Source: a virus
Taxonomy: Duplodnaviria; Caudoviricetes
Direction: 5' to 3' (one strand)
IMG/VR virus record: IMGVR_UViG_3300024344_003081
DNA: 64,000 bases
Shown: one piece after another, positions 8,878-63,170 of the stretch
Position numbering within the stretch: position 1 is the stretch's first letter
Layout: each line of letters begins with the position of its first letter
Program-made: the position numbers and the translations under genes
Notes under the pieces: generated by a model
Database searches by the model: none
Told to the model about the DNA's origin: nothing
What the model saw: the letters and a program-made list of their open reading frames with translations, nothing else

Positions 8878-8880
8878 ATA
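8873..8880 (+). promoter_or_regulatory. T4-type late promoter
   Basis: exact TATAAATA upstream of the cell wall hydrolase gene. Confidence 0.6.
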
Positions 8881-14071: not shown

Positions 14072-14721
14072 TGTTTATACATGAAAATGTTCTTGGTGAT
14101 TTAGAACTAAAAACTACAAATGAAAATGGAAAAAGATGTTATGTAACTCCTGATGGTGAAAAATATCCTTCCGTTACTACTGTACTTTCTGATTATAAAA
14201 AAGAAGGTATAATCAAATGGAGAAAACGTGTTGGTGAAAAACAGGCCAATAAGATTTCCACTCAAGCATCCCGCCGCGGTACAAAAGTTCATAAACTGTG
14301 TGAAGATTATTTGAATAACGAATTATCATTTGACGATTATACTCCTGATAATGTTGTTATGTTTAAAAGTATTCAATCTATTTTGGATGAAATAGAGTTG
14401 GTTTATGGCCAGGAACGTACACTATTTTCAAATCATTTAAGAGTAGGAGGAAGAGTCGATTGTGTTGGTAAATTTCGTGGAAAAAAACACATAATTGATT
14501 TTAAGACTTCAAGCAAACCCAAAAAAGAAGAATGGATTGATAATTATTTTATGCAAGGGTCAGCATATTCTGTTATGTGGGAAGAAATGACTGGCATATC
14601 TATACCTTATATCGCAATAATTATTGCTGTAGCAGATGAAATGCCACAGATTTTTATTGAACACAGAGATAATTGGATCGATAAGTTTATAGAGATTAGA
14701 AATAATTATGATAACACTTAA
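14071..14721 (+). CDS. PD-(D/E)XK exonuclease (T4-like cyanophage exonuclease type)
   Basis: YPSVTTVL..RGT.VH..E..GRVDC..IIDFKTS. Confidence 0.85.
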   Translation: MFIHENVLGDLELKTTNENGKRCYVTPDGEKYPSVTTVLSDYKKEGIIKWRKRVGEKQANKISTQASRRGTKVHKLCEDYLNNELSFDDYTPDNVVMFKSIQSILDEIELVYGQERTLFSNHLRVGGRVDCVGKFRGKKHIIDFKTSSKPKKEEWIDNYFMQGSAYSVMWEEMTGISIPYIAIIIAVADEMPQIFIEHRDNWIDKFIEIRNNYDNT

Positions 14722-15847
14722 TCTTGATGAGATCAAAAGAAAACCACAATTATTATCAATATTAGAAGAATTGAAACATGAAAAAGATTCAATTTTACTA
14801 TTTGATATGCCCGAAGGATCAAGATTATGGCCATTAGACGAAGAAGAAGACTTTTCTTATATTTTATTTTCAAAAGCACATGAAATTTTACAATATCACA
14901 AATTTGATGTTTGGTATTTGTGTTCTGATGTAAATATTAAGACCAGATATACAAAATGGTGTAAAAAAGTAGGTGTTGAAAAAAAGTTTAATGTATTATA
15001 TTTTCCATTTACTGTTAGATTAGATGTTATTGATTATATCAAACAAGAACACGTTGATTCTCTCGCCAATATTCCTAAGAAAAAAAATTTTATACAATTA
15101 ATTTGTAATCCTGATGTTTCTAGAATAGCAACTGTTAATCGTTATTATAAACATCTAAATTATGAATATTCTTTAGTTCCTCAGTTTCATAATGATCATG
15201 AAAATAATTTTGATATAAAAAATAGAATACTTACAGAAATTGAATTGTCTGATATATGGATTAATGATGTTGATGGAGGTAAAGAGTTAAAAGATTGGGA
15301 AACAATTACTGTAAATAATAAAAAACTTAATAAATATATTTTTAATGCATTTCTTCCTAAAGAAAGTTTTGAATCTTGTTGTGATGTAGTATTAGAAACT
15401 TATTTAGATGGTCCACTTTATTTTACTGAAAAAACATGGAAACAATTTTTGTTTCAAAAGCCTTTTATTATGATAGGCACAAAAGGTATTAATCATTATT
15501 TACAAGATTTAGGATTTGAATTATATGATGAAATTTTTGATTATGATTATGACTTAGAAGATAATAATATAAGAAGATTAGAGGGGTTTTGGACTCAAAT
15601 AGAACGATATTTAGACCTTGATGTTCCTGATTTTGAGAAGAAACTTATTATATTGAAAAAAAAGCTAATACATAATAGAAATACCTACATTAAATGGATA
15701 TCAAATATAGATAACGTATTAAATGATCATCGACCAGAATATGATGAGTTGGCTCATTATTTCTATCTTTATTCTACTTTTTACGAAAAAGAATATTTAC
15801 CAGATAAGGGGTTTAACATAATTAAAAAAATTTGTTTGGGGTGTTAA
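14708..15847 (+). CDS. GT10-like/GT-B-like hypothetical protein, copy 1
   Basis: DVVLET..FTEKTWK..KPFIMIG..LGFELYDEIFDYDYD; paralogs at 25561 and 41731. Confidence 0.5.
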   Translation: MITLNLDEIKRKPQLLSILEELKHEKDSILLFDMPEGSRLWPLDEEEDFSYILFSKAHEILQYHKFDVWYLCSDVNIKTRYTKWCKKVGVEKKFNVLYFPFTVRLDVIDYIKQEHVDSLANIPKKKNFIQLICNPDVSRIATVNRYYKHLNYEYSLVPQFHNDHENNFDIKNRILTEIELSDIWINDVDGGKELKDWETITVNNKKLNKYIFNAFLPKESFESCCDVVLETYLDGPLYFTEKTWKQFLFQKPFIMIGTKGINHYLQDLGFELYDEIFDYDYDLEDNNIRRLEGFWTQIERYLDLDVPDFEKKLIILKKKLIHNRNTYIKWISNIDNVLNDHRPEYDELAHYFYLYSTFYEKEYLPDKGFNIIKKICLGC

Positions 15848-16533
15848 TGGATTATGATTTTACAATAAGTAGTCATTGTAACGCCGCATGTCCTTCTTGT
15901 AAGAGATATGAAAGTCACAATAATCCGATTAATTTATATAATGAACCTTTGCATCCAGGATTAAATCAAATTCATATGGATTTTGATGAATTTAAATATA
16001 TTATTGAAAGAGATATTAATTTATTTAAAAACAAACTTGTAACATTTGAAGGTGAACTTGGGGATCCTATGGTTCATCCACATATAAAATCTTTTATAAA
16101 TTTTAGTACAGGTGTTTTTAAAAAATTAAAAATAGTTACTAATGGTGGAATTAGAAATGCAAAATTTTTTAATGATTTGGGAAATACATATAATAATTTA
16201 GAAATTATGTTTTCTATAGATGGTCTAGAAGATGATTTAAATGGGTTGTATAGAGTAAAAGTAAATACTAAAAAAGCAATTGGTAATATGGTTGCATTTG
16301 CTAAAAGTAAGTATGGAAAATCATGGGGAGTGAGTTGGCAATATCTTATTTTTGAACACAACTGGTTTGAAATACCAGAAGTTTTAGATTTTGCAAAATT
16401 ATACAATATACCTATTGTATTAAAAATAAATACTCGACCTAAATTTAGAATAGAAGATAGATTAATACCTAGTGTTGTTAAACAATATGAAAAAAATAAA
16501 TTTAAATTAAGCAATCTTGTTTTAGCGAATTAA
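15847..16533 (+). CDS. radical SAM protein (core only)
   Basis: CNAACPSC; GELGDP; TNGG; FSIDG. Confidence 0.88.
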   Translation: MDYDFTISSHCNAACPSCKRYESHNNPINLYNEPLHPGLNQIHMDFDEFKYIIERDINLFKNKLVTFEGELGDPMVHPHIKSFINFSTGVFKKLKIVTNGGIRNAKFFNDLGNTYNNLEIMFSIDGLEDDLNGLYRVKVNTKKAIGNMVAFAKSKYGKSWGVSWQYLIFEHNWFEIPEVLDFAKLYNIPIVLKINTRPKFRIEDRLIPSVVKQYEKNKFKLSNLVLAN

Positions 16534-17222
16534 TGTTACCTGCAGAAACTTTTATATACAATTTTGAAATTACATCGTATTGTAATGCTGATTGTCCTAG
16601 TTGTTTTAGAACAATGAATAAAAGTAAATTGCCACTTAGACATTTAAAAGTTGAAGATTTCGAATTTTTAATATTAAACAATATAAATTTTATAAAAAAT
16701 AATCGATACGAAATACAAATTGCAAAATTTTGTGGAGAAGTTGGAGATCCTCTGTTACATCCTAAGATTGATCAATTAATTGGTATAGCTGAAAGTGTGT
16801 TTAATAGAGTTGAAATTTATACAAATGGTGGACTTAGAAATACAACTTGGATAAAAAATCTATTTAGACGATATGGAAAAACTCGTTTTGTGTTTGGTAT
16901 TGATGGATTGTCTGATGAAACAAATCAAATGTATAGAGTTAATGTGAGAACTGATATTGCATTAAAAAATATGATTGAATCTGCAAAATATAGACCTACT
17001 AGATGGGAATATACGATATTTAGTCACAATTATTTAGAATTATTTGATGTGATAATGTTTGCAAAAAAACACGACTTAAAGTTATTATGTAGATTTAATG
17101 GCCGAACTTTTAATAAACTTGATGATGAAAATATAGTTAAGTGTGAAACATTACTTAAAAAACATAATACAGACTATTACATATGCAAAGAAGATGTGAG
17201 AATGAAGAAGAAATTAAAATAA
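16533..17222 (+). CDS. radical SAM protein (core only)
   Basis: CNADCPSC; GEVGDP; TNGG; FGIDG. Confidence 0.88.
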   Translation: MLPAETFIYNFEITSYCNADCPSCFRTMNKSKLPLRHLKVEDFEFLILNNINFIKNNRYEIQIAKFCGEVGDPLLHPKIDQLIGIAESVFNRVEIYTNGGLRNTTWIKNLFRRYGKTRFVFGIDGLSDETNQMYRVNVRTDIALKNMIESAKYRPTRWEYTIFSHNYLELFDVIMFAKKHDLKLLCRFNGRTFNKLDDENIVKCETLLKKHNTDYYICKEDVRMKKKLK

Positions 17223-17488
17223 AATGTGATTTTTATAATTATGAATCTGCTAGTTGGAGTCAATATGAAATAGATTTAGATTTAAATGTATTTCCTTGTT
17301 GTCATTATTATATGGACCACACTTTAACTAAAAAACCTAATAAGCATATTAGTCATATAGATAATAGTCTTAAAACCAATTCTTTAAATAATATTTTTAA
17401 AGAATATGATAAAGTATTAAATGAAAAACTTTGGAAAAATAAAAAAACATGTCCTCCTCTTTGTATGAAAATTTGCCGAAAAAAATAA
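17183..17488 (+). CDS. stand-alone SPASM/Twitch-like Fe-S domain
   Basis: C..EID...VFPCC..C..C...C, matching the C-termini of rSAMs at 49028, 50001, 56615. Confidence 0.65.
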   Translation: MQRRCENEEEIKIKCDFYNYESASWSQYEIDLDLNVFPCCHYYMDHTLTKKPNKHISHIDNSLKTNSLNNIFKEYDKVLNEKLWKNKKTCPPLCMKICRKK

Positions 17489-17808
17489 ATAATAATCAAC
17501 ATAATTTACCTGAAGAATTTGAAGATTTGGTTTATTGTATAGGATGGCATGAACATAAAAAATGGGCAGAAGTTGAAATAGCATCTGATTTTTCTGTATA
17601 TCCTTGTTGTGCTTTACATGCAGAGCATCAATTAAATAAAAGATTCTTAGATAAAAAATTAGATAGTTTTGATAAGGAATGGAATAATTTAAAGAAACAT
17701 AAATTGAAAGATATCTTAAAAATATGGAGAGAACATATTAAACCAGAATTTTGGAAAAAAGAAAAAACATTACCCGAATGCTGTAAAACATTATGCAAGA
17801 TAAAATAA
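17449..17808 (+). CDS. stand-alone SPASM/Twitch-like Fe-S domain
   Basis: C..EIA...VYPCC..CC..LC; start uncertain. Confidence 0.65.
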   Translation: MSSSLYENLPKKINNNQHNLPEEFEDLVYCIGWHEHKKWAEVEIASDFSVYPCCALHAEHQLNKRFLDKKLDSFDKEWNNLKKHKLKDILKIWREHIKPEFWKKEKTLPECCKTLCKIK

Positions 17809-18599
17809 TAATATTTGGAGATAGTTTTGCAGATCCTGCAGACAGAAAATACGAAAATAAAAATGTAACAACGTGGTATGAATTTTTGAAATCAGATTAT
17901 AAAATAACAAATCATGCTTTATCTGGTACAGGTCCTCACTATTCATTTAAAGAATATTATAATTTTATTTCTAGTGATAATAATAAAGAAGAGTATATTT
18001 GTATTTTTTTATTAAGTGGAGAAGATAGAATTCATTTCTATAATGCTGATCCCCAAACTATTACACATATTAATTGGAACTTTGATAAAAAAGAAAGTTG
18101 GTGGGCAGAAGATTCAAATTTAACGAAACAAAAAATATATTATGATACATTTAAATCTGAAATTGATTTTTTCTTTTTAACAATGCATGATGAATTAAAA
18201 TGGTCTAATTTTAAAAATTTAGGATTCCTTTATATGAATTCTTTATTATTAAATATGAAAACATTTGTATTTTGTACTTATGGTATTAAAATATTAAGTG
18301 GAATGGGTAATTTTTTAAATCTTACGCAACTTAATAATTCAAATTTTTATTTATATCCAACTGAATTGGGATATATTGCTCATCAAGAATTTGTTGATTT
18401 AGAAACTGCTGGTGGTTATGATTTTGTAGATTATAGAAGAAATCATTTATCACAAGAAAATCATAAAGTTTTATATGAAAATATAAAAAAAATGATTAAA
18501 AATGATTATGAATATATTCCGTTTGTTAAAAATATAAATCATTCTCAAAATCTTGGACAATTTCGTAATTCAAAAACAGGAAAATTTATTTATGAATAG
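17793..18599 (+). CDS. SGNH/GDSL-like protein
   Basis: IFGDSF..GTG..RNHLSQENH; ends FIYE. Confidence 0.65.
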   Translation: MQDKIIIFGDSFADPADRKYENKNVTTWYEFLKSDYKITNHALSGTGPHYSFKEYYNFISSDNNKEEYICIFLLSGEDRIHFYNADPQTITHINWNFDKKESWWAEDSNLTKQKIYYDTFKSEIDFFFLTMHDELKWSNFKNLGFLYMNSLLLNMKTFVFCTYGIKILSGMGNFLNLTQLNNSNFYLYPTELGYIAHQEFVDLETAGGYDFVDYRRNHLSQENHKVLYENIKKMIKNDYEYIPFVKNINHSQNLGQFRNSKTGKFIYE

Positions 18600-19455
18600 A
18601 TTATTTGTTTTTGGAGATAGTTTTAGTCATCCAAATAGAGTTGATATTGATAAATTGCCTTTATGTGAGTTTATTGATGATAAATTTTTTACATTTTATC
18701 GTATAGTAGCAGAAAAGTTAAAAGCTGAATGTTATAATTTTTCATTAAGTGGTTCTGGCCCACAATATACAATGCTTAAATTTCATCAGGCTTTGTATCA
18801 TTATAAATTTAAAAAAAATGATTATATAGTTTTATTATTGTCAGATCCTAGTAGAGATTATAACCCTATAGAAAATGATATAGAAGAAGTAAAATATGTT
18901 GAATTAGGGGACAGACCTCATTATGGATTTGAAAATATAAGAAATCTTATATATCTTCAATATATGTCAAAATATTTTTTTCCAGAAGTCAAGTTTTTTT
19001 GTAATGTTATATGGAAAGAAAGTTCATTTTTTGAAGGTGAATATTATTCAAGTAGAGAAGGTGAATTTGGAATACACCAAAATGATTTTCCATCTAAAGA
19101 TTTTAAATTTGAAAAGTTATATAATTTAAATGATAGTAATAATTGGTTTTATTTGTGCGATTGTGAATTAGGTATTATTCATATGAAAGAATTTAAAAAA
19201 AAATACAAGATTTATATGTCTCATGAACGATTGCATTTTACACACAATGAAGATTCACAATTTAAAGTAAAAGCAGAAGTCAATGATAGTAGAGTAAATC
19301 ATATGAGTCAAAGAACTCATAATACTTTTGCTAATATTATTTTGGATTTTTTTATTAATAATAAAAGACCTATAAATACTGATAATTTTTTCGAAACTGG
19401 TTTTTTAGATTATGATGATCCACATTTAATTCCACAGGAATTTATATATGAATGA
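18592..19455 (+). CDS. SGNH/GDSL-like protein
   Basis: VFGDSF..GSG..VNHMSQRTH; ends FIYE. Confidence 0.65.
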   Translation: MNRLFVFGDSFSHPNRVDIDKLPLCEFIDDKFFTFYRIVAEKLKAECYNFSLSGSGPQYTMLKFHQALYHYKFKKNDYIVLLLSDPSRDYNPIENDIEEVKYVELGDRPHYGFENIRNLIYLQYMSKYFFPEVKFFCNVIWKESSFFEGEYYSSREGEFGIHQNDFPSKDFKFEKLYNLNDSNNWFYLCDCELGIIHMKEFKKKYKIYMSHERLHFTHNEDSQFKVKAEVNDSRVNHMSQRTHNTFANIILDFFINNKRPINTDNFFETGFLDYDDPHLIPQEFIYE

Positions 19456-20182
19456 TTTTCATATTTTTGGAGATAGTTTTGGGGAAAATCCATTACATAG
19501 TGATTCTCCTGAATTTTGCTGGTTCAATAATTTAAAATTAAAAGTTGATGGAACAGTTTTTAATTATTGCTTAGGATGTACTGGTCCAATAGAAAATTTA
19601 AAACTGCTTCTAGAAAAAAAATTAAAAGATACTAATATAATATTTTTGTTATCTATAAAATACAGAATACCATTTCCTTTTTCGAAAGAACGTGGTCATA
19701 GTGAAGATTTTAAAGAAATTCATGATTCTCGCACTTCTCCTAGAAAAGAAGTTAATTATGCACTAGAATGGTTATATGAAATTGATATGGTTTATAACAT
19801 GTTTGGAGATGAAATAGAAATGTCTCCTTTCTTATGTATATTATATTTACATTTTTATGCTTTAAAAAATAATTGTAAAATATTGATTTTTTTATGTGAT
19901 CCAAATGATGTTGCAAATGAAAATTATTTTTATTTTAATAATGAACATTTTAAAGTACATAGAAAAAATATTTGGCATATGAGTCAAGAAGAATTTCGAA
20001 ACAGAATAATTGATCCTATTGAAGAAGAAAAAAGAGTTTCGCATATAAGTGAATGTAATCATACAATCATGTTTAATATTATTTTAAATTTTTTTATGAA
20101 TACTTCTTATAATGAATCATTTTATCAAAATTTATATGACGGATCAAAAGAAAAAATAAAAAATAGATTTATTTATGATTGA
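19448..20182 (+). CDS. SGNH/GDSL-like protein
   Basis: IFGDSF..GCTG..VSHISECNH; ends FIYD. Confidence 0.6.
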   Translation: MNDFHIFGDSFGENPLHSDSPEFCWFNNLKLKVDGTVFNYCLGCTGPIENLKLLLEKKLKDTNIIFLLSIKYRIPFPFSKERGHSEDFKEIHDSRTSPRKEVNYALEWLYEIDMVYNMFGDEIEMSPFLCILYLHFYALKNNCKILIFLCDPNDVANENYFYFNNEHFKVHRKNIWHMSQEEFRNRIIDPIEEEKRVSHISECNHTIMFNIILNFFMNTSYNESFYQNLYDGSKEKIKNRFIYD

Positions 20183-20867
20183 AAAAATAGAATACGATAC
20201 TAAAAAATATAATTTTGTTAAAGTTTTTCAAGAATATTTTGAAGAAGATTTAACAAAATTACATAAAAAACTTCAATTTGAACGTGAATTTTCGGAAATG
20301 GCAGGAGGAACAGAAGAGTTTGAAGTAGTATCACAAACTTATACAGATGTTATTAAAACTTTAGCTTTTAATGATTTATGGATTGAATTTGTTGAAAATG
20401 TTATTAAATCATATTTTGATAATAAATCTATTTACATTCAAAAACTTCCTTCTTTTAGAATATTTCCTGCAGGACATTCTGTAAAATATGTTGAAAATAC
20501 AACTGATGGATATAATAAACATTTAGATGCAGAGCCTCCTTATTATCATCCTAAATTTGAGAGCAGTTTTTGGATACCATTGACAGAATGTAATTATTTA
20601 AATGATTTTTATTATCAAGATGAATATGGATCATATCGAAGAGCAGATATACGTATAAATGAATTGCTAATTTTTAGTAGTGATGTGATACATGGAAATA
20701 GTGTACATAATAAATCTTCTCAAACTAGATGTTCTTTGGATTTTAAAGGTTTAGCAGTAGATGATTATGATGAAACTATGTTGAGTGATCAAATGATTTT
20801 AAAAAGAGGCTCACCATTTAAACAAAAAGATTGGTATAGTACAAAACATTATTATATGGAAATGTGA
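20175..20867 (+). CDS. StrG-like / 2OG-Fe(II) cupin oxygenase
   Basis: QKLPSFRI..HLD..YH...SFWIPLT..HGN..N....RCSLDF. Confidence 0.6.
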   Translation: MIEKIEYDTKKYNFVKVFQEYFEEDLTKLHKKLQFEREFSEMAGGTEEFEVVSQTYTDVIKTLAFNDLWIEFVENVIKSYFDNKSIYIQKLPSFRIFPAGHSVKYVENTTDGYNKHLDAEPPYYHPKFESSFWIPLTECNYLNDFYYQDEYGSYRRADIRINELLIFSSDVIHGNSVHNKSSQTRCSLDFKGLAVDDYDETMLSDQMILKRGSPFKQKDWYSTKHYYMEM

Positions 20868-21880
20868 TGGACGTTAATTCTCATAATGATTGGGATTCTC
20901 TTGAAGAAATAATTGTAGGTCGTGCAGATTTTGCACATATTCCTCCAGTGGATTCTTCAATGAAAAATTTCATGTTTGCAAATCTGTCAAATGAAGAAAT
21001 AAAAAAACATGTTGGATCATATAATCAGGATCTTCTTAAAGAAGCAAATGAGGATCTTGATATTTTATCTGAAGTATTGGAAGATTGTGGAGTTGTAGTT
21101 CATAGACCAGAAAGAACACAACATCATCAGCGAATTCAGACTCCAAAATGGAGAACTACTGGTTGGCATAATTATTGTCCCAGAGATATTTTTTTAATTT
21201 TGGGAAATAATATTATCGAAGTTCCTAGTGTTATGAGAAGTCGGGTGTTTGAAACTTGGTCTTATAATACAATTTTACACAAAGCATTTGAAGATGGTGC
21301 AAGATGGTTTTCTGCACCAAAGCAAATTATTAAAGATGAAAGTTTTGATTTTTCAGATTTATCAAAACCAACATTAATGAACAATGAGATTCTTTTTGAT
21401 GCCCCTAATGTAATAAGAATTAATAAAGATTTAATTTTTCAAATAAGTAATAGTGGGAATGAAAAAGGAGCCGAATGGTTAGAAAGAATGTTTCCTGAAT
21501 ATAAAATTCATATTGAACATGATGCATATTCAGGCGCCCATTTTGATAGTACAATAATTCCTTTAAGAGAAGGACTTGTATTATTAAATGGACTAAGATG
21601 TAATCAAGATAATTATCCTAAATTTTTTGATGATTGGGAAAGAATATTTTTTACTGATATTATTTCAACTAATTCTGAAGACTCTGGAATATCAAGCGAT
21701 TCAATTGGATTAAATTTATTAAACATTAATCCCAATTTAGTCATTGTTGATGAAAATCAAAAACCATTAATAAAAATTTTAGAACAATATAAAATAGATA
21801 GTATACCTTTATCTATGAAACATGCAAGAACATTAGGCGGTGGTTTCCACTGTGTAACATTGGATTTAAAGAGAAAATGA
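20867..21880 (+). CDS. amidinotransferase (AGAT/StrB1 family)
   Basis: NSHNDWDSLEEIIVG, CPRD, FDAPN, HFDST, LGGGFHCVT (Asp-His-Cys triad). Confidence 0.9.
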   Translation: MDVNSHNDWDSLEEIIVGRADFAHIPPVDSSMKNFMFANLSNEEIKKHVGSYNQDLLKEANEDLDILSEVLEDCGVVVHRPERTQHHQRIQTPKWRTTGWHNYCPRDIFLILGNNIIEVPSVMRSRVFETWSYNTILHKAFEDGARWFSAPKQIIKDESFDFSDLSKPTLMNNEILFDAPNVIRINKDLIFQISNSGNEKGAEWLERMFPEYKIHIEHDAYSGAHFDSTIIPLREGLVLLNGLRCNQDNYPKFFDDWERIFFTDIISTNSEDSGISSDSIGLNLLNINPNLVIVDENQKPLIKILEQYKIDSIPLSMKHARTLGGGFHCVTLDLKRK

Positions 21881-24970: not shown

Positions 24971-24976
24971 AAGTAT

Positions 24977-29061: not shown

Positions 29062-29068
29062 GAGACAT

Positions 29069-29749: not shown

Positions 29750-29768
29750 CAAAATAATATAGGATATT

Positions 29769-43978: not shown

Positions 43979-44030
43979 CAGGAAGATAAATAGTTAAAAA
44001 TAATTAAGAACAATCTCAGAGGAACAAATT

Positions 44031-44630: not shown

Positions 44631-44653
44631 ATTTTTTAAAAATATATTATTTA

Positions 44654-53334: not shown

Positions 53335-53534
53335 ATAATATTATAAATGATTATTCTTTGAGAGAATTACAAATTATTTCTTCAAGAATATTATCAGAAC
53401 ATGAAGCTACAAATAATTTTATAAAACAATTTAAAGCAGATCATGATAGTCATCAATTTTATAAAAACGTTATTAAATGGTATATTGAAAAATATAAACA
53501 TTTTCCTGAATTGAAAAAATATGATTCCTTCTAA
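53325..53534 (+). CDS. small hypothetical protein
   Basis: coupled ORF between rSAM genes. Confidence 0.5.
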   Translation: MEIDNIINDYSLRELQIISSRILSEHEATNNFIKQFKADHDSHQFYKNVIKWYIEKYKHFPELKKYDSF

Positions 53535-55810: not shown

Positions 55811-56663
55811 TTATTGGGAAACAGGTTATTTTAAAAAAAAGAATCTTAGATTTGTATTTCCAGTAAATCAACCTGGACTGGGTGATAGATTTATCATGGC
55901 CTCAAATATTCTTTTTACTATGAAAGAAGTTGAACACGAATCTTGTATTGTTGATATTTTTCTTAAAAACACAAAGACGGTGCATAAAAGCCAGTATTTA
56001 AATCTTATAGATTTTTATGATATTATAGATTTTTTTCATTTTAAAAGACCAGATGAAAGTGAATCATCAATAATTACAAATATAATAGATGAAGCTCCTC
56101 CTACATATAAAGAGATATTGGCTTCAAAACGAAAAAATATTACAGGTGATGTTGCTTGTCATGATTTTAATTCTAGATATAATGAATATGTTATAAGTAA
56201 TTATTTTCTTTATAACGAAGCACGATATTGGCCTATAAATTATGATAAAACTGCAAAAAAGCAACTTATAACATTTATGTTTTATGTAGATGATTCAGTA
56301 CCCGAACATAAATTTATCACAACAGAGGAAGAAAAAGAATTTAATAAGGTAAAAGATTATTATGGACATTATTTTCATCGACATGAATATTATTTTGTTC
56401 GTTTAGAAGATTTTAATTATAAAAGAAATATAGAATTATTATCTAAAAGTTTGTTTTTAATAGCATCAGAAGGAATGTGGACCCATTTATCTAGAGCAAT
56501 GAAAGTTAATACCATAGCATATTCTAGGGATATTACTTTTATTGAGGAATTTAATAAACAGGGACATTTTTGTTCTGGATTTTTTGAAAAATGTTTAATT
56601 GAATTAGAAAAAAAATGTATAGAATTAAAAAAGAAGAGCAACTTTATAAGTTTGAAGAGATAA
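55794..56663 (+). CDS. GT-B (GT9-like) putative glycosyltransferase, tandem copy B
   Basis: near-duplicate of copy A. Confidence 0.5.
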   Translation: MNHRSSYWETGYFKKKNLRFVFPVNQPGLGDRFIMASNILFTMKEVEHESCIVDIFLKNTKTVHKSQYLNLIDFYDIIDFFHFKRPDESESSIITNIIDEAPPTYKEILASKRKNITGDVACHDFNSRYNEYVISNYFLYNEARYWPINYDKTAKKQLITFMFYVDDSVPEHKFITTEEEKEFNKVKDYYGHYFHRHEYYFVRLEDFNYKRNIELLSKSLFLIASEGMWTHLSRAMKVNTIAYSRDITFIEEFNKQGHFCSGFFEKCLIELEKKCIELKKKSNFISLKR

Positions 56664-57682
56664 AACATATACATTTTGAACCTACGCAAAGATGTCAGGC
56701 GGCGTGTCCTATGTGTGATAGAACTAATAATCCACATATAAAAAATGCTGAACTTTCTATAGAACAATTTAAACAAATTGTAAATGCTAATTTAGCAAAA
56801 CAATTAAATAGTTTTCTTATGTGTGGTAATCATGGAGATCCTATGATTGCAAAGGATACCCTTGAAATGTTTGACTGGTTACGCTATAATAATAATGAAC
56901 TATATCTTCATATGACTACAAATGCTGGAGGACGATCTGATGATTGGTGGAAAAGACTTGCGGAAATTTTTGGTGATTATGGAAAAGTATCTTTTTCAGT
57001 AGATGGTTTAGAAGACACAAATCATTTATATCGAGTAAATGTAGATTGGAATCGTGTTGAAAATTCAATGGATGTTTTTACTCAAGCAGGAGGAAAAGGT
57101 TATTGGGTATTTTTAATATTTGAACATAATGAACATCAAGTAGAAGAAGCAGAACGAATGGCTAAATTATTTGGACTTGAATTTGTGAGAAAAAAGTCTG
57201 GAAGATGGGTGCAAAGTTATAAAAATAAGAAAATTGACAAAAAGATAACCACTAAGGGGAATGAGATTAAGCCACCAGCTAATCCAGAGAATCAGAATAA
57301 GAGTGTTAACAGTTATGATAAATTGATTAAAAGTCATGGTTCCTTTCAAGAGTATTTAGATAAAACAAAAATAAAATGTAAGTCAATAGATACTAAAGAA
57401 ATTTTTATTTCAGCAGAAGGTCTTGTGACTCCTTGTTGTTGGACTGCTGGAAAATTATATAAAGTATATGAAAAAATAGGACAAAATCAAATATGGTCTT
57501 ATATAGATGATATTAAAAATATTAATGCTTTATATAAACCTTTAAATGAAATTATTGAAGGAGATTTTTTTAAAAAGATTAAACAATCTTGGAATTTGCC
57601 TTCTTGTTCACAAGGAAAATCAAAAGTTTGTGCAGAGAAGTGTGGTACTGATTTTAACGCATTTGCAGATCAATGGAAATAA
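56615..57682 (+). CDS. radical SAM protein with C-terminal Twitch/SPASM domain
   Basis: CQAACPMC; GNHGDP; TPCC..CAEKC. Confidence 0.9.
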   Translation: MYRIKKEEQLYKFEEIKHIHFEPTQRCQAACPMCDRTNNPHIKNAELSIEQFKQIVNANLAKQLNSFLMCGNHGDPMIAKDTLEMFDWLRYNNNELYLHMTTNAGGRSDDWWKRLAEIFGDYGKVSFSVDGLEDTNHLYRVNVDWNRVENSMDVFTQAGGKGYWVFLIFEHNEHQVEEAERMAKLFGLEFVRKKSGRWVQSYKNKKIDKKITTKGNEIKPPANPENQNKSVNSYDKLIKSHGSFQEYLDKTKIKCKSIDTKEIFISAEGLVTPCCWTAGKLYKVYEKIGQNQIWSYIDDIKNINALYKPLNEIIEGDFFKKIKQSWNLPSCSQGKSKVCAEKCGTDFNAFADQWK

Positions 57683-58395
57683 AAATTAATTGTCTTAAAT
57701 GGGGAACAAAATATGATTCTTCATATGTTAATAGAACATATGGTGGGTTATTAAAACATTGTAATGAATCATTTCATTTCGTTTGTTATACTGATAATCC
57801 TAAGGGAATATCTTCTAAAATTGAAACAAAAGATATTGAAGAACTTAGACCATATAATACAAATATGATGTTTACATATGAAAAATTAATGCTGATAGAC
57901 AAAGACGAATATGATAAGAATCTCTGGATAGATTTAGATGTATTAGTACATGAAAATGTAACTGAATTAATAACAAGAAAGCATAATAATATTACATTTA
58001 TATGGAATTATTGGAATGATTATGAAAAAATAAGTTTATTTAATTTTGGTAGGGGAGTTTCTTGTCATGTAAATTCTTCATTTGTTGCATGGGATAAGGG
58101 AACAGCTTCTTGGCTTTTAAAATATACTAAAGAAAATTGGAAAAAAATAGAATGGACATATAAAAGTCTTGATAAGTATTTGTTTTATCAACATTACAGA
58201 AATAATAAAATTAATTTATGGGAAGATGGATTTTTTTCAAATTATAATAAAGAAAATTATAAATTAAAAAATAAAGTAACATTATTTAATACATCACATC
58301 TTTATAACAATAAAAATATGAAAGAAATTAAACATTACGAATTAGATGAATCACCAGTACAGGAATTATGGAAAAGTTATTCTCTTGGGTTGTAA
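57673..58395 (+). CDS. GT-A fold phage glycosyltransferase
   Basis: CLKWGTKY, FVCYTD, IDLDV, NSS. Confidence 0.75.
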   Translation: MEIKINCLKWGTKYDSSYVNRTYGGLLKHCNESFHFVCYTDNPKGISSKIETKDIEELRPYNTNMMFTYEKLMLIDKDEYDKNLWIDLDVLVHENVTELITRKHNNITFIWNYWNDYEKISLFNFGRGVSCHVNSSFVAWDKGTASWLLKYTKENWKKIEWTYKSLDKYLFYQHYRNNKINLWEDGFFSNYNKENYKLKNKVTLFNTSHLYNNKNMKEIKHYELDESPVQELWKSYSLGL

Positions 58396-58787
58396 ATCAT
58401 GAAAAAATTTCTGTATTATGTTGTCCAAGTTTTAAATTTATTAAAACATTAAAAGGACTGGATATGGAGATTGATAATATAAATTATGATATTAATTTTA
58501 GAGATATGCCAAATGTGATTTGTAAAGATTTTGTATTTGATAATGTTAAATTATATAATTGTGTATTGCATTATAATTGTGAGAAAACATATCCTGTGGG
58601 ACGAATGCATGAAGGAATTTTTATATTAAGGGGTGATGATAAAGAACATAATGGTGATTGTAATCCTATTCATTCGATTGATAAATTAATAGATGATAAT
58701 GAATTGACAGAAGTTTTTGATTCATTTGAAATACAAAGTAAAAATAAAAAATACAAACATTATTGTGTATATGGAACAAATCTATAA
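58368..58787 (+). CDS. hypothetical protein
   Basis: coupled ORF. Confidence 0.55.
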   Translation: MEKLFSWVVNHEKISVLCCPSFKFIKTLKGLDMEIDNINYDINFRDMPNVICKDFVFDNVKLYNCVLHYNCEKTYPVGRMHEGIFILRGDDKEHNGDCNPIHSIDKLIDDNELTEVFDSFEIQSKNKKYKHYCVYGTNL

Positions 58788-59541
58788 TTGGAGAAAAAAT
58801 AAAAACGATATAAGTTTGCACAATATTGAAATAGGTTCTTATAATGAAAAGATTGGAGAACTTAAAGAAGAAATAGGTTCTATTAGAGAGACTATTGGAG
58901 AACATAGAGAACAAATTTCTATATGTGAAAATGATAATAGAGAAACACCATATTATTGGGTCAATCAATGGGTTAATAATAATTTGCCTTCATATTCTAA
59001 TAGTTTTGAAGACTCTGTATCTCAAGGACAATATGAATCTAAATTATGGTTAAATGAAAAATTAGAAAAATTTATTTCTATGCCAGAACTTCATATTGAT
59101 ATTATCGGTTCTTGGTTTGGATTTCCTTTAATAGAAATGTTAGCAAATGCGTTTGATATAAAACAAATAGATTTATATGATATTGATGAGGATTGTCATA
59201 AAGTAACTGCTCAATATATAAATCATTTTGATTGTGATTTTAAAATAGTGCAATTTAAAGATTTTTTTGAACGTAAAGAAATGAGAAGAAGACATTTAAT
59301 TATTAATACATCATCTGAACATATGTCTGATATAGTTCTTATGAAAGAATATTATAAAGATTATCCAGTAAAACCTATTTTAGCAATACAATCAAATAAT
59401 TATTTTGATGTTGAAGATCATATAAATTGTGTAAAAGAGGTTGATGAATTAATAGAAAAAAATCAAATTAAAAATGTTTTGTATAAAGGAAAACGTTCTT
59501 TGCCATTATATGATAGATTTATGGTGATAGGTAAATGGTAG
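58771..59541 (+). CDS. class I SAM-dependent methyltransferase-like protein with N-terminal coiled coil
   Basis: GQ..SK.WL, IIGSWFG, LYDID, IINTSSEHM. Confidence 0.65.
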   Translation: MEQIYNWRKNKNDISLHNIEIGSYNEKIGELKEEIGSIRETIGEHREQISICENDNRETPYYWVNQWVNNNLPSYSNSFEDSVSQGQYESKLWLNEKLEKFISMPELHIDIIGSWFGFPLIEMLANAFDIKQIDLYDIDEDCHKVTAQYINHFDCDFKIVQFKDFFERKEMRRRHLIINTSSEHMSDIVLMKEYYKDYPVKPILAIQSNNYFDVEDHINCVKEVDELIEKNQIKNVLYKGKRSLPLYDRFMVIGKW

Positions 59542-60104
59542 TTATTGTTCTTGTACGCACAGGAAGTAAATATGATGAATGGTATGAAAATAATATCATT
59601 TATATGATACGTAAATTTGGAGAAATGAAAAGATGTGAATATTATATTATAAGAGAGGGAGAAGGTAGTGTATATGATAAACTTAAAATGTTTAAGGAAT
59701 GTACTGATGATGTAAATTATTTATATTTTGACTTAGATATTATTATTAAGAAGCCCATAGACTATTTAATTAAAGATGATTTTACACTTGTTAATGCTTG
59801 GTGGAGGGCGCCATTTCATACTCCTTTGAATTCTTCAATAATGTCATGGAAAGGAAATTATTCTCATATTTATGACAAATTTTATGAAGATGAAGATTAT
59901 AGCAGAGTAAAATATTGGAAAGGTATTGATGAATATATTTACAAAGAAATGGAGTATAATACTTATGATGATAAAGTATGTTGGTCTTATCCCTGGAATA
60001 GACAAGAATTAGATTATTCTATTTGTTTGTTCAATCATGAATTTGCTCCTGCAATGAGAATAAAAGGATGGATGGAAAAATATGTGTTATTAGAAACTTC
60101 TTAA
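59535..60104 (+). CDS. GT-A fold phage glycosyltransferase
   Basis: VRTGSKY, YFDLDII, LNSSIMSW, GIDEYI. Confidence 0.75.
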   Translation: MVVIVLVRTGSKYDEWYENNIIYMIRKFGEMKRCEYYIIREGEGSVYDKLKMFKECTDDVNYLYFDLDIIIKKPIDYLIKDDFTLVNAWWRAPFHTPLNSSIMSWKGNYSHIYDKFYEDEDYSRVKYWKGIDEYIYKEMEYNTYDDKVCWSYPWNRQELDYSICLFNHEFAPAMRIKGWMEKYVLLETS

Positions 60105-60601
60105 CAGAAGAAGAATGTTTTAATTTTATTATAACTTATAGAAAAAAAGTTCGGCGAGCCGGAGTTATAAATGAAGAATTTTCTGATTATCGAAGATCAA
60201 AAGTTTTTATTTGGCATAAAGATTCTTTTTTAGAAAACAAATTTAATTGTTCTAATATGATATTTCAATTTTCAGAATATTCTAAATTAAATTATTATCA
60301 TTGGCATAATGATTTTAATACTACTCAATCGGAGCGTAAAAGAATAGAAACATGTGTGGTGCCTTTAAATGAGGAATATCAAGGAGGTCTTTTTGAAATT
60401 AAAGATCAAGATCCAATTGAATTAAATGTAGGAGATTGTCTTAGATTTGATTCAAAATTAGAACATAGAGTTAATCCTGTATTAAAAGGAAAAAGATATT
60501 CTTTAACTGCTTGGGTTATTGAACAAAAGTCAATAAAACATTATTTTGAAGATGAAATTTATAAACATCTTGTAATTGCAAACGATTTGGAATTAATATG
60601 A
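60068..60601 (+). CDS. 2OG-Fe(II) oxygenase (prolyl-hydroxylase-like)
   Basis: YHWHND, LNEEYQGG, HRVNPV..GKRYSLTAW. Confidence 0.88.
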   Translation: MDGKICVIRNFLTEEECFNFIITYRKKVRRAGVINEEFSDYRRSKVFIWHKDSFLENKFNCSNMIFQFSEYSKLNYYHWHNDFNTTQSERKRIETCVVPLNEEYQGGLFEIKDQDPIELNVGDCLRFDSKLEHRVNPVLKGKRYSLTAWVIEQKSIKHYFEDEIYKHLVIANDLELI

Positions 60602-61677
60602 CAGATAAAACATCCGATATAGTTTTGATACATGCTTATTTGTCTGATGAAGAAAGAAAATCAGTTTGTCATAAATTTATAAAACAATTTAAATCTTTTG
60701 GGTATGATGTTATAATCACAAGTCATTTGCCCCTTGATAAAGATACACAAGAATTGGTTGATTATGCAATTTATGATAAAGATAATATTTTGTTAAATGA
60801 TCCTACACTTAAAGGATATTTGGTAAATTATGCTTATGCTCCTGATGATGAAGGAAATCCTATACCCCTTTTTAATATTGCAAGTAGAGAATTTTTTAAA
60901 AATAATACAATACTTGCAGTTTTACGTTTATTGCTTGCTGGTGTTACGTATGCAAAACTTCTTAATAAAAAAATAATACATTTATTTGATTATGATGGAT
61001 TTTTGCCTACTGATGAAGAGTTAATAAAAAATAGCGATATTATATTGAATCAAGGAAAACAAGCAGTATTTTATGAACGTGAGACAGAAAATTTAGATGC
61101 CGAACATTGGGGCGAAAGAAGAATTAGACATTGGCAAATTATGACATTAATTATGTCTTGTAATGTAGATTTTTTATATCGAAGATTGAATATGTATTCT
61201 GATGATCATCTTAAAAAAATGATTACTTATAAAGGTATGCAAATGGGAGAAGAGTTATTAGGATATGTTCTTGGGGTGTCTTATTTAAATAAAGAAAAAG
61301 ATACTTTTGAAGAAAACATTGAAATAAAAAATCTTGAAGAAAGTTCTCAAAGAATAGGTTTTGAAAAACAAAAAGTTTATACTGATGCTGAATTTCCTTG
61401 GATATGTCTTGCAAAAGATCCGGCACAAGATGGATATAGATTTTTTGCTATGCCACCGAAAGGAACAATTCATGTGAAAGTTTTTTATAATCATAATTTA
61501 TATTCTGCATTTACTTGTTCTGATTGGGGATATAGAACAGATTATTTTGCTTCAGAAGGACTTGAAAATATAACAATTCATGTGAATGATGAATTTTTTA
61601 GAGAATATGATTTTACTGATCCAAAAACAGAAGCACTTATTTTAATGAATAGTATTTGGACTGATGCACCAAAATAA
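60598..61677 (+). CDS. hypothetical protein (possible glycosyltransferase-associated)
   Basis: long coupled ORF; IITSHLP..YAIYDKDN. Confidence 0.55.
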   Translation: MTDKTSDIVLIHAYLSDEERKSVCHKFIKQFKSFGYDVIITSHLPLDKDTQELVDYAIYDKDNILLNDPTLKGYLVNYAYAPDDEGNPIPLFNIASREFFKNNTILAVLRLLLAGVTYAKLLNKKIIHLFDYDGFLPTDEELIKNSDIILNQGKQAVFYERETENLDAEHWGERRIRHWQIMTLIMSCNVDFLYRRLNMYSDDHLKKMITYKGMQMGEELLGYVLGVSYLNKEKDTFEENIEIKNLEESSQRIGFEKQKVYTDAEFPWICLAKDPAQDGYRFFAMPPKGTIHVKVFYNHNLYSAFTCSDWGYRTDYFASEGLENITIHVNDEFFREYDFTDPKTEALILMNSIWTDAPK

Positions 61678-62452
61678 AATAACTATTATAATTCATACAT
61701 GTGATGAATACAGTCATTTTTGGGATGGTTGGTATACCATGTTCGATCATTTTGGATTTTTAGATTTAGGATGGCCCATACATTTTTGCAATGAAGAAGT
61801 AGATTTGCCTTTTAATGATCAGAGAATAACTCAGATTAAAACAGGTAAAAGTAAAAAGTATATGGGAGTTGAATGGAGAGAATGGTTACCTACTTTTGGG
61901 GGACCTAAACAAGTTGATGAAGGATGGAGTGATAGACTTATAGCATCTTTAAATTCAACTCAAACAAAGTATGTTTTATACATGCAAGAAGATCAATGGC
62001 CTTTTAAACAGATTAATGTAAATTTATTTAATAAATTATTAAATTTCGTATCTATTCATGATATAAATGGATTAAGATTACATCGACTTATATCTTCTTA
62101 TGATCTAAATGAATTTGAAGAAACAGACTATTATATAGACAATAAAAAAGTTTTAAGAGTCAAAAGGGATGCCGGTTTTTTATTATGTCATCAACCTACT
62201 ATTTGGAATAAAGACTTTTTATTAGATGTGAGTATTCATGGAGAAGGGTTTAGAGATAATGAATATGCTGGAAGTGAAAGAGTTAGAGAAAAATATAAAG
62301 ATCCAAAAATTTTTGTATATAATCATCATTGGTTTTTAGAAAAATCTGCTTCTTCTGCTGGTTTATGGATACCAGAAATTGAATGGGAATATAGAGAAGT
62401 TGCAAGAGAACGTGATGTTTATAAACATTTTAATATGATTAAAAATGAATAA
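61664..62452 (+). CDS. GT-A-like hypothetical protein
   Basis: IIIHTCD.Y, YVLYMQED, HQPTIWNK. Confidence 0.55.
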   Translation: MHQNKITIIIHTCDEYSHFWDGWYTMFDHFGFLDLGWPIHFCNEEVDLPFNDQRITQIKTGKSKKYMGVEWREWLPTFGGPKQVDEGWSDRLIASLNSTQTKYVLYMQEDQWPFKQINVNLFNKLLNFVSIHDINGLRLHRLISSYDLNEFEETDYYIDNKKVLRVKRDAGFLLCHQPTIWNKDFLLDVSIHGEGFRDNEYAGSERVREKYKDPKIFVYNHHWFLEKSASSAGLWIPEIEWEYREVARERDVYKHFNMIKNE

Positions 62453-63170
62453 AACAAAAGTTTTTGCAGTTAGAATAGGCGACAAGTATGGACAAGATGT
62501 AGAAAATTACATTGAATCCAAAATTTCAAATGTAACTTGGATTCGTGATGAATTACCAGATGTAAAATTACAATGGAATAAGTTACGAGTTATGAATATG
62601 GACATAGATGAACCTGTTCTTGTGATTGATATAGATATGCTTTTTATGAATGATTATGTTAAAGCAATAGATTATCCAATTAAAAAAGGTGAATTTTTAA
62701 CTGCAAAGTCTTGGTGGAAAGATACTTGGAATGAAAATTATTCTTTATGTGGGGGATTTCAAAAATATTATCCAAAAGATTGTAAATACATTTATGATGA
62801 ATTTATGAGTAATATTGATTATTGGTCACAATATTATATTACACGTAAAATAACAATTGGACCAGTTAATGGAGAGCAATATTTTGTAGAAGATCAAGTA
62901 AAGAATCGACTAAAATTAAAATATCTTCCAGAAACATGGATGTCTAGGATGTGTAATAAAAATGATTTAGAAGAACTTGCTTTAATAAATTCTCAATATC
63001 CAGGAGAATATGTTTATTTAGATGGGTTTCATAATGATATCAAAATAATACATTTTAAAGATTATGAAATAGATTATTCTTTTTCTTCTGGATATAGTTC
63101 CGCATCTCTTTCTGCTTCAACATCAGGTGTTTCTTCTTCACCTTCACCCTCATTAAGAATTTCAGAATAA
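62445..63170 (+). CDS. GT-A fold phage glycosyltransferase
   Basis: VRIGDKYG, WNKL, IDIDM, GEQYFV, IIHF. Confidence 0.7.
   Translation: MNKTKVFAVRIGDKYGQDVENYIESKISNVTWIRDELPDVKLQWNKLRVMNMDIDEPVLVIDIDMLFMNDYVKAIDYPIKKGEFLTAKSWWKDTWNENYSLCGGFQKYYPKDCKYIYDEFMSNIDYWSQYYITRKITIGPVNGEQYFVEDQVKNRLKLKYLPETWMSRMCNKNDLEELALINSQYPGEYVYLDGFHNDIKIIHFKDYEIDYSFSSGYSSASLSASTSGVSSSPSPSLRISE

Follow-up and report, generated by a model that had tools for sequence, protein, structure and literature searches.

A radical SAM-rich island in a marine T4-like phage and its possible role in glycan tailoring

Island layout and phage setting

We analysed a stretch of 64,000 nucleotides (nt) from the IMG/VR virus record IMGVR_UViG_3300024344_003081 (hereafter, the window), and describe here an island at 14708-63170 that is rich in radical S-adenosylmethionine (SAM) enzymes. 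Nearly all coding in the window is on the + strand and GC content ranges from 0.23 to 0.34, with a mean of about 0.27 in the island against 0.30-0.34 upstream. The island holds 58 open reading frames (ORFs) of at least 80 amino acids (aa), all on the + strand, plus one ORF of 68 aa that occupies the sole sizeable gap (53334-53521); 51 of the 57 junctions between island ORFs overlap. This agrees with a first-pass annotation of the same DNA, which had described about 60 co-oriented and almost without exception overlapping genes following the core exonuclease. Annotation drew on Pfam, NCBIfam, PHROGs, profile-against-PDB searches, two AlphaFold (AF2) models, Foldseek and Atlas neighbours. The features that define the borders and the gap are as follows.

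11700..12533, + strand: T4-type RNase H/flap endonuclease rnh, the left core-gene anchor (phrog_107; 5_3_exonuc_N and RNaseH_C)
14071..14721, + strand: PD-(D/E)XK nuclease, directly before the island (PF12705)
53326..53532, + strand: 68-aa ORF, read from the sequence, not Cys-rich (69-aa gene call on an independent contig)

The flanks are those of a T4-like phage. The rnh product is 48% identical to its counterparts in the OM43 phage Melnitz and in cyanomyophages. Orthologues of the PD-(D/E)XK nuclease occur in 12 of 14 related loci at 68-98% identity and directly precede the island where that flank is covered. Downstream of the island, independent contigs carry a gp33-like coactivator and gp59. 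As rnh and gp33/gp59 are adjacent in T4, the replication module seems to have received the island by insertion. The block is best explained as a hypervariable accessory island, between rnh and gp33/gp59, in a T4-like marine jumbo myovirus that is uncultured and low in GC.

The island is real and under selection. Exact copies of its proteins are encoded on 21-25 independent contigs (ENA, JGI and Logan assemblies), with their order unchanged, and a contig of 0.2-1 Mb that encodes them exists. At least 20 DNA runs, spread over 6 named marine-water studies, contain an 8.7-kb radical SAM block. Among IMG/VR records, 14 loci encode the B12-type radical SAM enzyme at 70-92% identity, and their islands begin after the same PD-(D/E)XK nuclease where the upstream flank is covered. 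Ratios of non-synonymous to synonymous substitution (dN/dS, Nei-Gojobori) lie between 0.10 and 0.37 for the 30 island genes with a usable estimate, which indicates purifying selection. A chimeric or cellular contig, which together with gene decay would have undone the first-pass interpretation, can be rejected on the T4-type flanks, the proteins in the same order on independent contigs and the many DNA runs; the dN/dS values speak for genes that are not decaying. The synteny comparison with related T4-like contigs that the first-pass annotation had proposed found the same block on independent contigs, with mosaic gene content among relatives, a pattern to be expected for a hypervariable island.

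Two relatives' contigs, the 161-kb PAAV01000055.1 and the 80-kb PBYV01000081.1, each encode 13 radical SAM enzymes in the homologous block. Both are filed in public metagenome-assembled genomes, one as Chloroflexota and the other as Acidimicrobiaceae, and are evidently mis-binned phage DNA. The same seems to hold for four further loci, L017-L019 and L021, whose labels are Verrucomicrobiales, Rickettsiales, Gammaproteobacteria and Planctomycetota; they, too, appear to be mis-binned phage DNA.

Radical SAM and other tailoring enzymes

The most prominent content of the island is its set of radical SAM enzymes, listed here with the two SPASM-like proteins that accompany them.

15832-16533 and 16533-17222, + strand: two short radical SAM cores without a SPASM of their own (PF04055 20 and 32 bits; CX3CX2C at residues 16 and 17)
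within 17183..17808, + strand: two stand-alone SPASM-like proteins, 101 and 119 aa long (each with 6-7 Cys; mutual paralogues)
21877..23658, + strand: B12-binding (class B) radical SAM enzyme, methyltransferase-like (PF04055 E 3e-13; PF02310 weak, E 9e-4, below the Pfam cut-off)
32033..33223, + strand: N-twitch radical SAM enzyme, paralogue 1 of 5 (NF033640 202 bits)
37416..38234, + strand: radical SAM enzyme with a C-terminal SPASM (PF04055 and PF13186)
44654..46084, + strand: N-twitch paralogue 2, the best conserved (NF033640 398 bits; dN/dS 0.10)
46729..47955, + strand: radical SAM enzyme, weakly viperin/MoaA-like, with 16 Cys (Pfam and NCBIfam matches; Cys count)
47952..49040, + strand: N-twitch paralogue 3 (NF033640 236 bits)
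49028-50014 and 49968-50930, + strand: two radical SAM-SPASM enzymes (PF04055 and PF13186)
50924..52270, + strand: N-twitch paralogue 4 (NF033640 199 bits)
52267..53334, + strand: radical SAM enzyme with Bdellovibrionota orthologues (PF04055 E 1e-15)
53521..55050, + strand: N-twitch paralogue 5, carrying an insert of about 75 aa (NF033640 209 bits)
56615..57682, + strand: radical SAM-SPASM enzyme with Bdellovibrionota orthologues (Pfam)

All 14 radical SAM ORFs keep CX3CX2C, so that the first-pass count stands, and 13 of the 14 match PF04055 above the Pfam gathering score; 15832 reaches only 20 bits but is 36% identical to its neighbouring paralogue 16533. Between 15832 and 17808, radical SAM cores are followed by separate Cys-rich SPASM-like ORFs in an order that is kept in five relatives (L001-L005), and the ORF at 17449 matches residues 231-313, the SPASM part, of radical SAM enzyme 49028. 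This looks like a 'split' radical SAM/SPASM arrangement. We rejected membership of 21877 in the KedN5 subfamily (NF033712), as it scores 215 bits against a cut-off of 700 bits and has in common only a class-B-like architecture.

Five of the radical SAM enzymes exceed the curated whole-protein cut-off (170 bits) of NF033640 (N_Twi_rSAM), a family with an N-terminal twitch (auxiliary-cluster) domain. In their alignment (A4), C15, C33, C97 and C100 are invariant and C34 is near-invariant, all ahead of the core cysteines C153, C157 and C160. The twitch domain of BtrN aligns to positions 59-95 of the N-twitch profile, and BlsE is also a weak sequence match. The family numbers 3360 metagenomic homologues, yet is nearly absent from deposited phage genomes. 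Paralogue 53521 differs from the other four in A4 by its N-terminally inserted module (about 53647-53870), which has no counterpart in them. In a close relative (L097:6025-9939), a 1304-aa ORF that sits between gp5 (hub/lysozyme) and the gp25/gp6 baseplate genes has a segment, residues 264-338, with 55% identity to the module (E 8e-21). A module common to a radical SAM enzyme and a baseplate-cluster protein may be read as a weak, circumstantial link to the virion.

Sugar activation and glycosyl transfer are represented in the island and on both of its flanks. The genes in question, and a family of SGNH-like proteins, are these.

9555..10559, + strand: glycosyltransferase (GT), upstream of the island (phrog_2170 E 1e-34)
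13069..13779, + strand: sugar-phosphate nucleotidyltransferase (NTP_transferase), upstream of the island (PF00483 on an identical protein)
38231..38902, + strand: CMP-sugar-type cytidylyltransferase (PF02348, CTP_transf_3, E 2e-15)
14708..15847, + strand: GT-B-like protein, paralogue 1 of 3 (paralogy; the family model has a GT-B-like fold)
25561..26799, + strand: GT-B-like protein, paralogue 2 of 3, the one modelled (AF2 pTM 0.76, pLDDT 71)
41731..43011, + strand: GT-B-like protein, paralogue 3 of 3 (paralogy; alignment A1)
17793..20182, + strand: three SGNH/GDSL-like paralogues, 17793, 18553 and 19448 (invariant G-D-S and G-P blocks)
26796..27704, + strand: SGNH/GDSL-like paralogue 4 (paralogy, alignment, Atlas)

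The best matches of the 25561 model in PDB are nearly all GT-B enzymes, yet with E values of 7e-3 to 1e-1 and TM scores of about 0.3. Matches in AFDB have E values down to 4e-9 and include GT1/fucosyltransferase-like entries, and a profile of the family found no match among PDB sequences. Directly downstream of the island, an independent contig encodes an 886-aa GT1 and FkbM-methyltransferase protein and a 1137-aa GT2, GT1 and GT9 protein; GT domains just past the island number five. Only three of about ten GT-like proteins claimed by the first-pass annotation thus lie within the island as GT-B-like paralogues; further GTs lie outside it, at 9555 and downstream. Similarly, four rather than five SGNH-like proteins were found. 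Their alignment has an invariant G-D-S and G-P block and a C-terminal block that reads NHxSxxNH instead of DxxH; Atlas neighbours are DUF6071/Lipase_GDSL, and the sole PDB sequence match is a weak one to AlgJ (E 0.34). Profile searches of PDB sequences with the SGNH-like family and with the family of 58717 (below) returned nothing usable.

The remaining tailoring enzymes combine amidino-, carbamoyl-, amino- and methyl-transfer with oxidation and activation chemistry.

20864..21880, + strand: amidinotransferase 1, StrB1-like (family profile against StrB1 1bwd; dN/dS 0.14)
42986..43978, + strand: amidinotransferase 2 (26% identical to 20864; in alignment A3)
27697..29061, + strand: carbamoyltransferase, NodU/CmcH/TobZ family (Carbam_trans_C E 7e-53, Carbam_trans_N E 1.5e-27)
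24977..25564, + strand: short DegT-type aminotransferase-like protein, 195 aa (PF01041 E 2e-19; dN/dS 0.25)
38853..39845, + strand: class I/II pyridoxal-phosphate aminotransferase (PF00155 E 3e-23)
23616..24254, + strand: 2-oxoglutarate (2OG)-Fe(II) oxygenase, firm (PF13640 E 7.5e-15)
60068..60601, + strand: 2OG-Fe(II) oxygenase, firm (PF13640 E 1e-14)
36835..37419, + strand: weak 2OG-Fe(II) oxygenase-like protein (PF03171 E 0.0027, below the cut-off)
40460-40888, + strand: weakly Asp/Arg-hydroxylase-like ORF (PF05118 22.5 bits against a cut-off of 22.6)
20175..20867, + strand: conserved HxD...H...R protein, possibly a 2OG oxygenase (H116, H173 and R185 invariant in alignment A7)
29069..29749, + strand: nitroreductase-family flavoprotein (PF00881)
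29769..31004, + strand: flavin-dependent (Trp_halogenase) halogenase-family protein (PF04820 full length, E 5e-64)
30970..32045, + strand: split adenylate-forming (ANL) enzyme, ORFs of 156 and 202 aa (PF00501 profile positions 168-333 only; AMP-binding at 31437)
46074..46826, + strand: PP-loop ATP pyrophosphatase whose C-terminal Cys cluster is QueC-like (invariant SGGxDS and C..CxxCxxC)
58717..59541, + strand: class I SAM-dependent transferase (methyltransferase) fold (AF2 pTM 0.67)

The amidinotransferase profile matches StrB1 (1bwd) over 334 positions (E 2e-99), and alignment A3 has D108, H226, D228 and C330 (GGxHC) invariant, which we read as the Asp-His-Cys triad of StrB1. The DegT-type protein 24977 covers about half of the DegT Pfam profile. 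The cultured cyanophage S-SCSM2R keeps this short form, as do contigs of related phages and Bdellovibrio (222 aa); identity is 41% to S-SCSM2R ORF305 over all 195 aa and 42-45% to Bdellovibrio. This conservation of length points to a distinct short family, not a pseudogene, and on the same ground we rejected the same-frame pair 24254/24977 as a broken DegT gene, a recoded stop or a pseudogene.

About seven oxygenases had been claimed; we count about five to six, namely two firm 2OG enzymes, two weak ones, one recognized by motif only (20175) and the flavin-dependent halogenase-family protein. A search of PDB sequences with the 20175 family gave nothing meaningful, only two short marginal matches to OspG kinase. 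The FAD motif of 29769 reads GGSTAG and WQFQID stands in place of WxWxIP; as the latter motif is degenerate, the protein may not halogenate. Homologues of it occur in cyanophages and a pelagiphage. Nitroreductase- and halogenase-family orthologues lie 1-2 kb apart, not abutting, in five relatives (L006, L007, L009, L010 and L011), and 29069 is possibly the flavin reductase partner of 29769 in a two-component pair. The 202-aa ANL ORF starts at the A3 motif and carries the A3 and A5 core motifs without a C-terminal subdomain; both ANL ORFs are kept in two relatives, L001 and L005. PP-loop protein 46074 has weak AsnB, ThiI and QueC matches, with PF06508 (QueC) over its C-terminal part only, and QueD, QueE and FolE were not seen alongside it. 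A Foldseek search of PDB with the 58717 model gave more than 500 matches at E <= 1e-3, the top 50 of which are nearly all methyl- or aminoalkyl-transferases. The amidino-, carbamoyl-, amino-, cytidylyl- and methyl-transferase-like enzymes of the first-pass annotation are thus all matched by profile or predicted fold. Its halogenase, nitroreductase, adenylase and QueC-like families are present too, the first with a degenerate motif and the adenylase split, and no sulfotransferase-like enzyme was found in the island.

What the island lacks also bears on its function. Pfam found no initiating transferase, flippase, ABC exporter, polymerase or ligase of the undecaprenyl-phosphate (Und-P)-type surface polysaccharide set in the island, and none of its proteins shows a clear membrane helix, a single stretch in 60598 being marginal (1.76). 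As regards peptides that are ribosomally made and modified after translation (RiPPs), the island has no free coding space for a precursor, no peptidase by Pfam and no exporter. No non-ribosomal peptide or polyketide synthase was found in it by Pfam. Searches of the window with Pfam and PHROGs gave no TGT/DpdA, Tet/JBP, thymidylate-synthase-type hydroxymethylase or DNA methylase, and TGT/DpdA, Tet/JBP and thymidylate-synthase-type genes were likewise not found on the relatives' 161-kb and 80-kb contigs; the Tet/JBP negative is weak, since the Tet_JBP search matched in no control genome. The first-pass annotation, too, had seen no such synthase, TET/JBP, DNA methylase or dNMP hydroxymethylase. 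The phage contigs of relatives also lack genes for an Fe-S A-type carrier and for NeuB.

The island's other ORFs are the following.

24254..24970, + strand: ORF with no Pfam match and no counterpart in any of 14 related loci
33175..36842, + strand: four ORFs (33175, 34698, 35290 and 36321) without a Pfam match, and a MORN protein (dN/dS 0.20-0.34)
33887-34741, + strand: MORN-repeat protein (PF02493)
39805..41734, + strand: four small ORFs, including 40460-40888; the other three have no assigned family
44031..44630, + strand: ORF with no Pfam match
55031..56663, + strand: tandem duplicate pair, 62% identical, inside the radical SAM block (hhalign probability 100)
57673..58787, + strand: two ORFs with no Pfam match
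59535..60104, + strand: ORF with no Pfam match
60598..63170, + strand: three ORFs with no Pfam match that end the co-oriented block and are present on independent contigs

An all-against-all hhalign comparison of the family-less island ORFs found only the tandem pair to be related, and an Atlas search with 35290 was uninformative (best score 0.80). The T4 late-promoter motif TATAAATA occurs 8 times in the window against 20 expected, and is thus under-represented; only three of the sites are on the + strand. One of these, at 8873-8880, is intergenic, about 55 nt upstream of an endolysin-like gene at 8936, and could be a T4-type late promoter.

Counterparts in Bdellovibrionota and in other phages

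A genome-wide scan with the N-twitch alignment found, besides the mis-binned phage contigs, almost only Bdellovibrionota. Their loci encode, in clusters, orthologues of eight island genes (44654, 52267, 56615, 58717, 46729, 46074, 20864 and 24977), with identities of 50-53% for 44654, 54-62% for 52267, 38-42% for 56615 and 27-33% for 58717, the last of which is co-conserved with the radical SAM core. In the isolate Bdellovibrio sp. HCB2-146, the N-twitch radical SAM gene overlaps a UDP-glucose/GDP-mannose dehydrogenase gene that is followed by an epimerase and a short DegT gene, while an amidinotransferase and further radical SAM genes lie upstream. Two other Bdellovibrionota chromosomes carry 8 and 10 consecutive radical SAM genes. 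These arrays adjoin GT2, a UDP-sugar dehydrogenase, an asparagine-synthase-type amidotransferase (AsnB) and GT-C (PMT_2). Unlike the phage set, which is wholly soluble, the bacterial arrays are chromosomal and come with a membrane GT-C and GT2. Bdellovibrionota arrays (L092, L098 and L100) are also found near polysaccharide-lyase-like genes, as a cellular system in its own right.

A second counterpart is found in a cultured phage. In Synechococcus phage S-SCSM2R (PQ898602.1), ORF298-310 encode a 2OG oxygenase, GT, GT25, GT, DegT, SPASM radical SAM enzyme, GT, 2OG oxygenase, amidinotransferase and GT2. Like the island, the run is overlapping and co-oriented; it has a PrnA-like halogenase nearby, an inosamine-type amidinotransferase that is 36% identical to the island's, and five interleaved GTs. 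It differs in having one radical SAM enzyme against the island's 14 and no N-twitch member, and the 18.6 kb examined contain no match to carbamoyltransferase 27697 or to B12 radical SAM enzyme 21877. The authors of that genome named three of the homologous genes 'antibiotic synthesis genes' (PMC12801897).

Descriptively, the island is of a known kind. Pelagimyophages and cyanomyophages have hypervariable 'host recognition cluster' and lipopolysaccharide (LPS)-gene islands (Zaragoza-Solas et al. 2020, PMC7029224; Sullivan et al. 2010, PMC3037559), and radical SAM 'gene cassettes' are the stated difference between two pelagimyophage islands (PMC7029224). As here, those islands are large and non-syntenic, belong to marine T4-like phages and carry GTs, sugar enzymes, 2OG oxygenases and halogenase-like genes. 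They lie, however, in the structural module from VrlC to gp14, beside tail fibres, whereas the present island lies in the replication module, has no tail-fibre gene and is far richer in radical SAM enzymes. A comparable number, 12 genes, was reported for the 183-kb marine T4-like genome TARA_ERS488813_N000010, where they are discussed only as Fe-S-cluster clients (Nishimura et al. 2017, PMC5332604); neither a pathway nor a link to glycans nor a counterpart in cells was put forward. The first-pass annotation knew of no characterised precedent for this density of radical SAM enzymes in a virus; none is characterised, but in view of these described cases and S-SCSM2R 'no precedent' is too strong. 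Of a link between phage and Bdellovibrionota radical SAM arrays we found no published account.

At the level of superfamilies only, the island also resembles the carbohydrate-acting radical SAM enzymes and aminoglycoside sets of which BtrN, DesII, BlsE, GenK, StrB1 and TobZ are members, in that twitch and B12 radical SAM enzymes are combined with DegT, amidinotransferase and carbamoyltransferase. In the island, however, the auxiliary-cluster domain is N-terminal, and there is no cyclitol synthase or resistance gene. Characterised relatives of its cytidylyltransferase, DegT, amidinotransferases, carbamoyltransferase and SGNH-like and GT-B-like proteins (StrB1, TobZ and KdsB/NeuA) act on sugars or other small amines.

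Candidate products and acceptors

On balance, we think that the island probably encodes a cytoplasmic pathway that makes and tailors unusual sugars or a glycan. This reading fits best with the sugar genes and GTs in the island and on both flanks, the sugar neighbourhood of the Bdellovibrionota genes and the S-SCSM2R run. That no clear membrane helix, initiating transferase, flippase, polymerase or exporter is encoded favours a cytoplasmic acceptor or a soluble product. The most likely acceptor would be virion proteins of the fibre or baseplate; we infer this acceptor rather than observe it, and infer likewise the chemical steps and the membership of the genes in one pathway. Glycosylation of mycobacteriophage virions (Freeman et al. 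2023, cited in PMC12801897) offers a functional model for such an acceptor, as soluble GTs of these phages reportedly decorate virion proteins in the cytoplasm; by analogy the island might act in the same way, although those cassettes have few GTs and no radical SAM array. The first-pass annotation had also preferred glycan tailoring, on virion proteins or at the host surface, and the sugar context in the phage, Bdellovibrionota and S-SCSM2R sustains that preference. Its description of a cluster 'without a scaffold synthase' is misleading because GTs, the scaffold makers for glycans, are present.

Such a pathway might proceed in four steps. Sugars would be activated by nucleotidyltransferase 13069 and cytidylyltransferase 38231. 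They could then be oxidised, transaminated, amidinated, carbamoylated, acylated, and O-acylated or de-acylated by the 2OG oxygenases, the DegT and class I/II aminotransferases, the amidinotransferases, the carbamoyltransferase, the split adenylase, the PP-loop enzyme and the SGNH-like proteins. In a third step, the 14 radical SAM enzymes would rebuild the sugars at unactivated carbons; C-methylation, epimerisation and dehydration are possible reactions, as is C-C or C-O chemistry. Transfer to the acceptor would fall to the three GT-B-like paralogues and the downstream multi-GT polypeptides. A more specific proposal, which we make only tentatively, is that the radical SAM core (the N-twitch, 52267 and 56615 types with the PP-loop enzyme and the class I SAM transferase) constitutes an undescribed radical nucleotide-sugar remodelling pathway common to marine jumbo phages and predatory Bdellovibrionota, and that in the phage it would give a hyper-decorated glycan, with guanidino, carbamoyl and C-alkyl groups, that is joined to baseplate or fibre proteins in the cytoplasm.

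Several observations weigh against a glycan pathway. About 18 island ORFs, roughly a third, have no assigned family, and we found no function in the literature for any NF033640 member, so that the name of the family says nothing on mechanism. Among PDB sequences, the N-twitch profile matches SkfB best, and SPASM and twitch radical SAM enzymes are at least as often modifiers of peptides or proteins. GT-like proteins inside the island number only three, and their assignment to GT-B comes from a medium-confidence model (pLDDT 71, TM about 0.3-0.5). Halogenase-family, nitroreductase and adenylase genes are atypical for glycan pathways, and amidinotransferase homologues are also found in Campylobacter phages, a group whose DNA contains modified guanine. 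Relatives differ in which cassettes they carry and in what order, and this mosaic content means that the island may be several independent cassettes and not one pathway. Expression support is limited to k-mer shares of 5-8% in four metatranscriptome runs, and scans for timing signals (sigma-70 promoters, terminators and TATAAATA) were at or below chance.

The same sugar chemistry could instead be aimed at the host envelope, our second choice of acceptor and one that we consider unlikely. During infection, the nucleotide-sugar pool of the host would be flooded or LPS/capsule precursors modified, and the changed surface could keep out superinfecting phages or affect grazing, an effect suggested for the 'LPS genes' of P-SSM2, S-SCSM1 and pelagimyophages. 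Published work interprets the GT-rich islands of marine myophages in this way (PMC7029224, PMC12801897), and the GT-C (PMT_2) that the Bdellovibrionota counterparts adjoin is a periplasmic-side enzyme. The island, however, has no evident membrane protein, initiating transferase, flippase, polymerase, ligase or transporter, and the host machinery would have to accept exotic sugars; moreover, radical SAM enzyme 53521 has a module in common with a baseplate-cluster protein.

Less probable still is that the radical SAM, 2OG and halogenase-family enzymes mature virion proteins or a RiPP-like peptide, possibly by thioether or C-C cross-links, hydroxylation or epimerisation, with the sugar genes forming a separate cassette. 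Peptide maturases abound in the SPASM and twitch families, SkfB is the best PDB match, and NCBIfam gave weak matches to many RiPP maturases. A relative's contig has three radical SAM genes at 102-108 kb, the island has an Asp/Arg-hydroxylase-like ORF, and 53521 carries the virion-protein module. There is, however, no room for a precursor gene, the sole small ORF (68 aa) not being Cys-rich, and no peptidase, exporter or clear membrane helix; the Bdellovibrio N-twitch gene overlaps that for a UDP-sugar dehydrogenase. To our knowledge, amidino-, carbamoyl- and cytidylyl-transferases have small-molecule substrates in all characterised cases (StrB1, AGAT, TobZ and KdsB/NeuA), which also counts against maturation.

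We regard as improbable a diffusible aminoglycoside-like or guanidino-sugar metabolite that would, for example, inhibit competitors or modulate the host. The genes from 20175 to 29061 (a putative dioxygenase, amidinotransferase, B12 radical SAM enzyme, 2OG oxygenase, DegT, GT-B-like protein and carbamoyltransferase) do form an aminoglycoside family set, and the 'antibiotic synthesis genes' label given to their S-SCSM2R homologues (PMC12801897) is in line with it. But the island encodes no cyclitol synthase, resistance gene, exporter or evident membrane protein, the S-SCSM2R homologues are interleaved with five GTs, and a lytic phage would have scant time to benefit from a secreted product.

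Hypermodification of DNA against restriction, by a glycosyl, amino-acyl or deazapurine-like base adduct, is very improbable. In its favour, T4 DNA beta-glucosyltransferase is the top PDB fold match of the GT-B-like family (ordinary GT-B enzymes match equally weakly), the PP-loop enzyme is QueC-like, the Campylobacter phages have amidinotransferase homologues and radical SAM enzymes take part in some thymidine hypermodifications, but TGT/DpdA, Tet/JBP, thymidylate-synthase-type and DNA methylase genes were not found in the searches described above, the QueC match is C-terminal only and its partners QueD, QueE and FolE were not seen.

The reading that we favour, sugar and glycan tailoring with virion proteins as the acceptor, would have consequences beyond this phage. 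The ocean's most abundant viruses include the marine T4-like phages, whose hypervariable islands are considered to determine host range; we know of no product of any such island. The present one is among the densest radical SAM collections in any virus, and its N-twitch family has thousands of metagenomic members, none characterised. Two experimental routes lead to it: a culturable Bdellovibrio isolate, where the radical SAM core is linked to nucleotide-sugar operons, and the cultured cyanophage S-SCSM2R with a reduced version of the island. If the product is a virion glycan, phage virion glycosylation would extend to a major marine group and involve new radical carbohydrate chemistry. If the more specific proposal holds as well, swapping of enzyme cassettes would change the surface chemistry of the virion.

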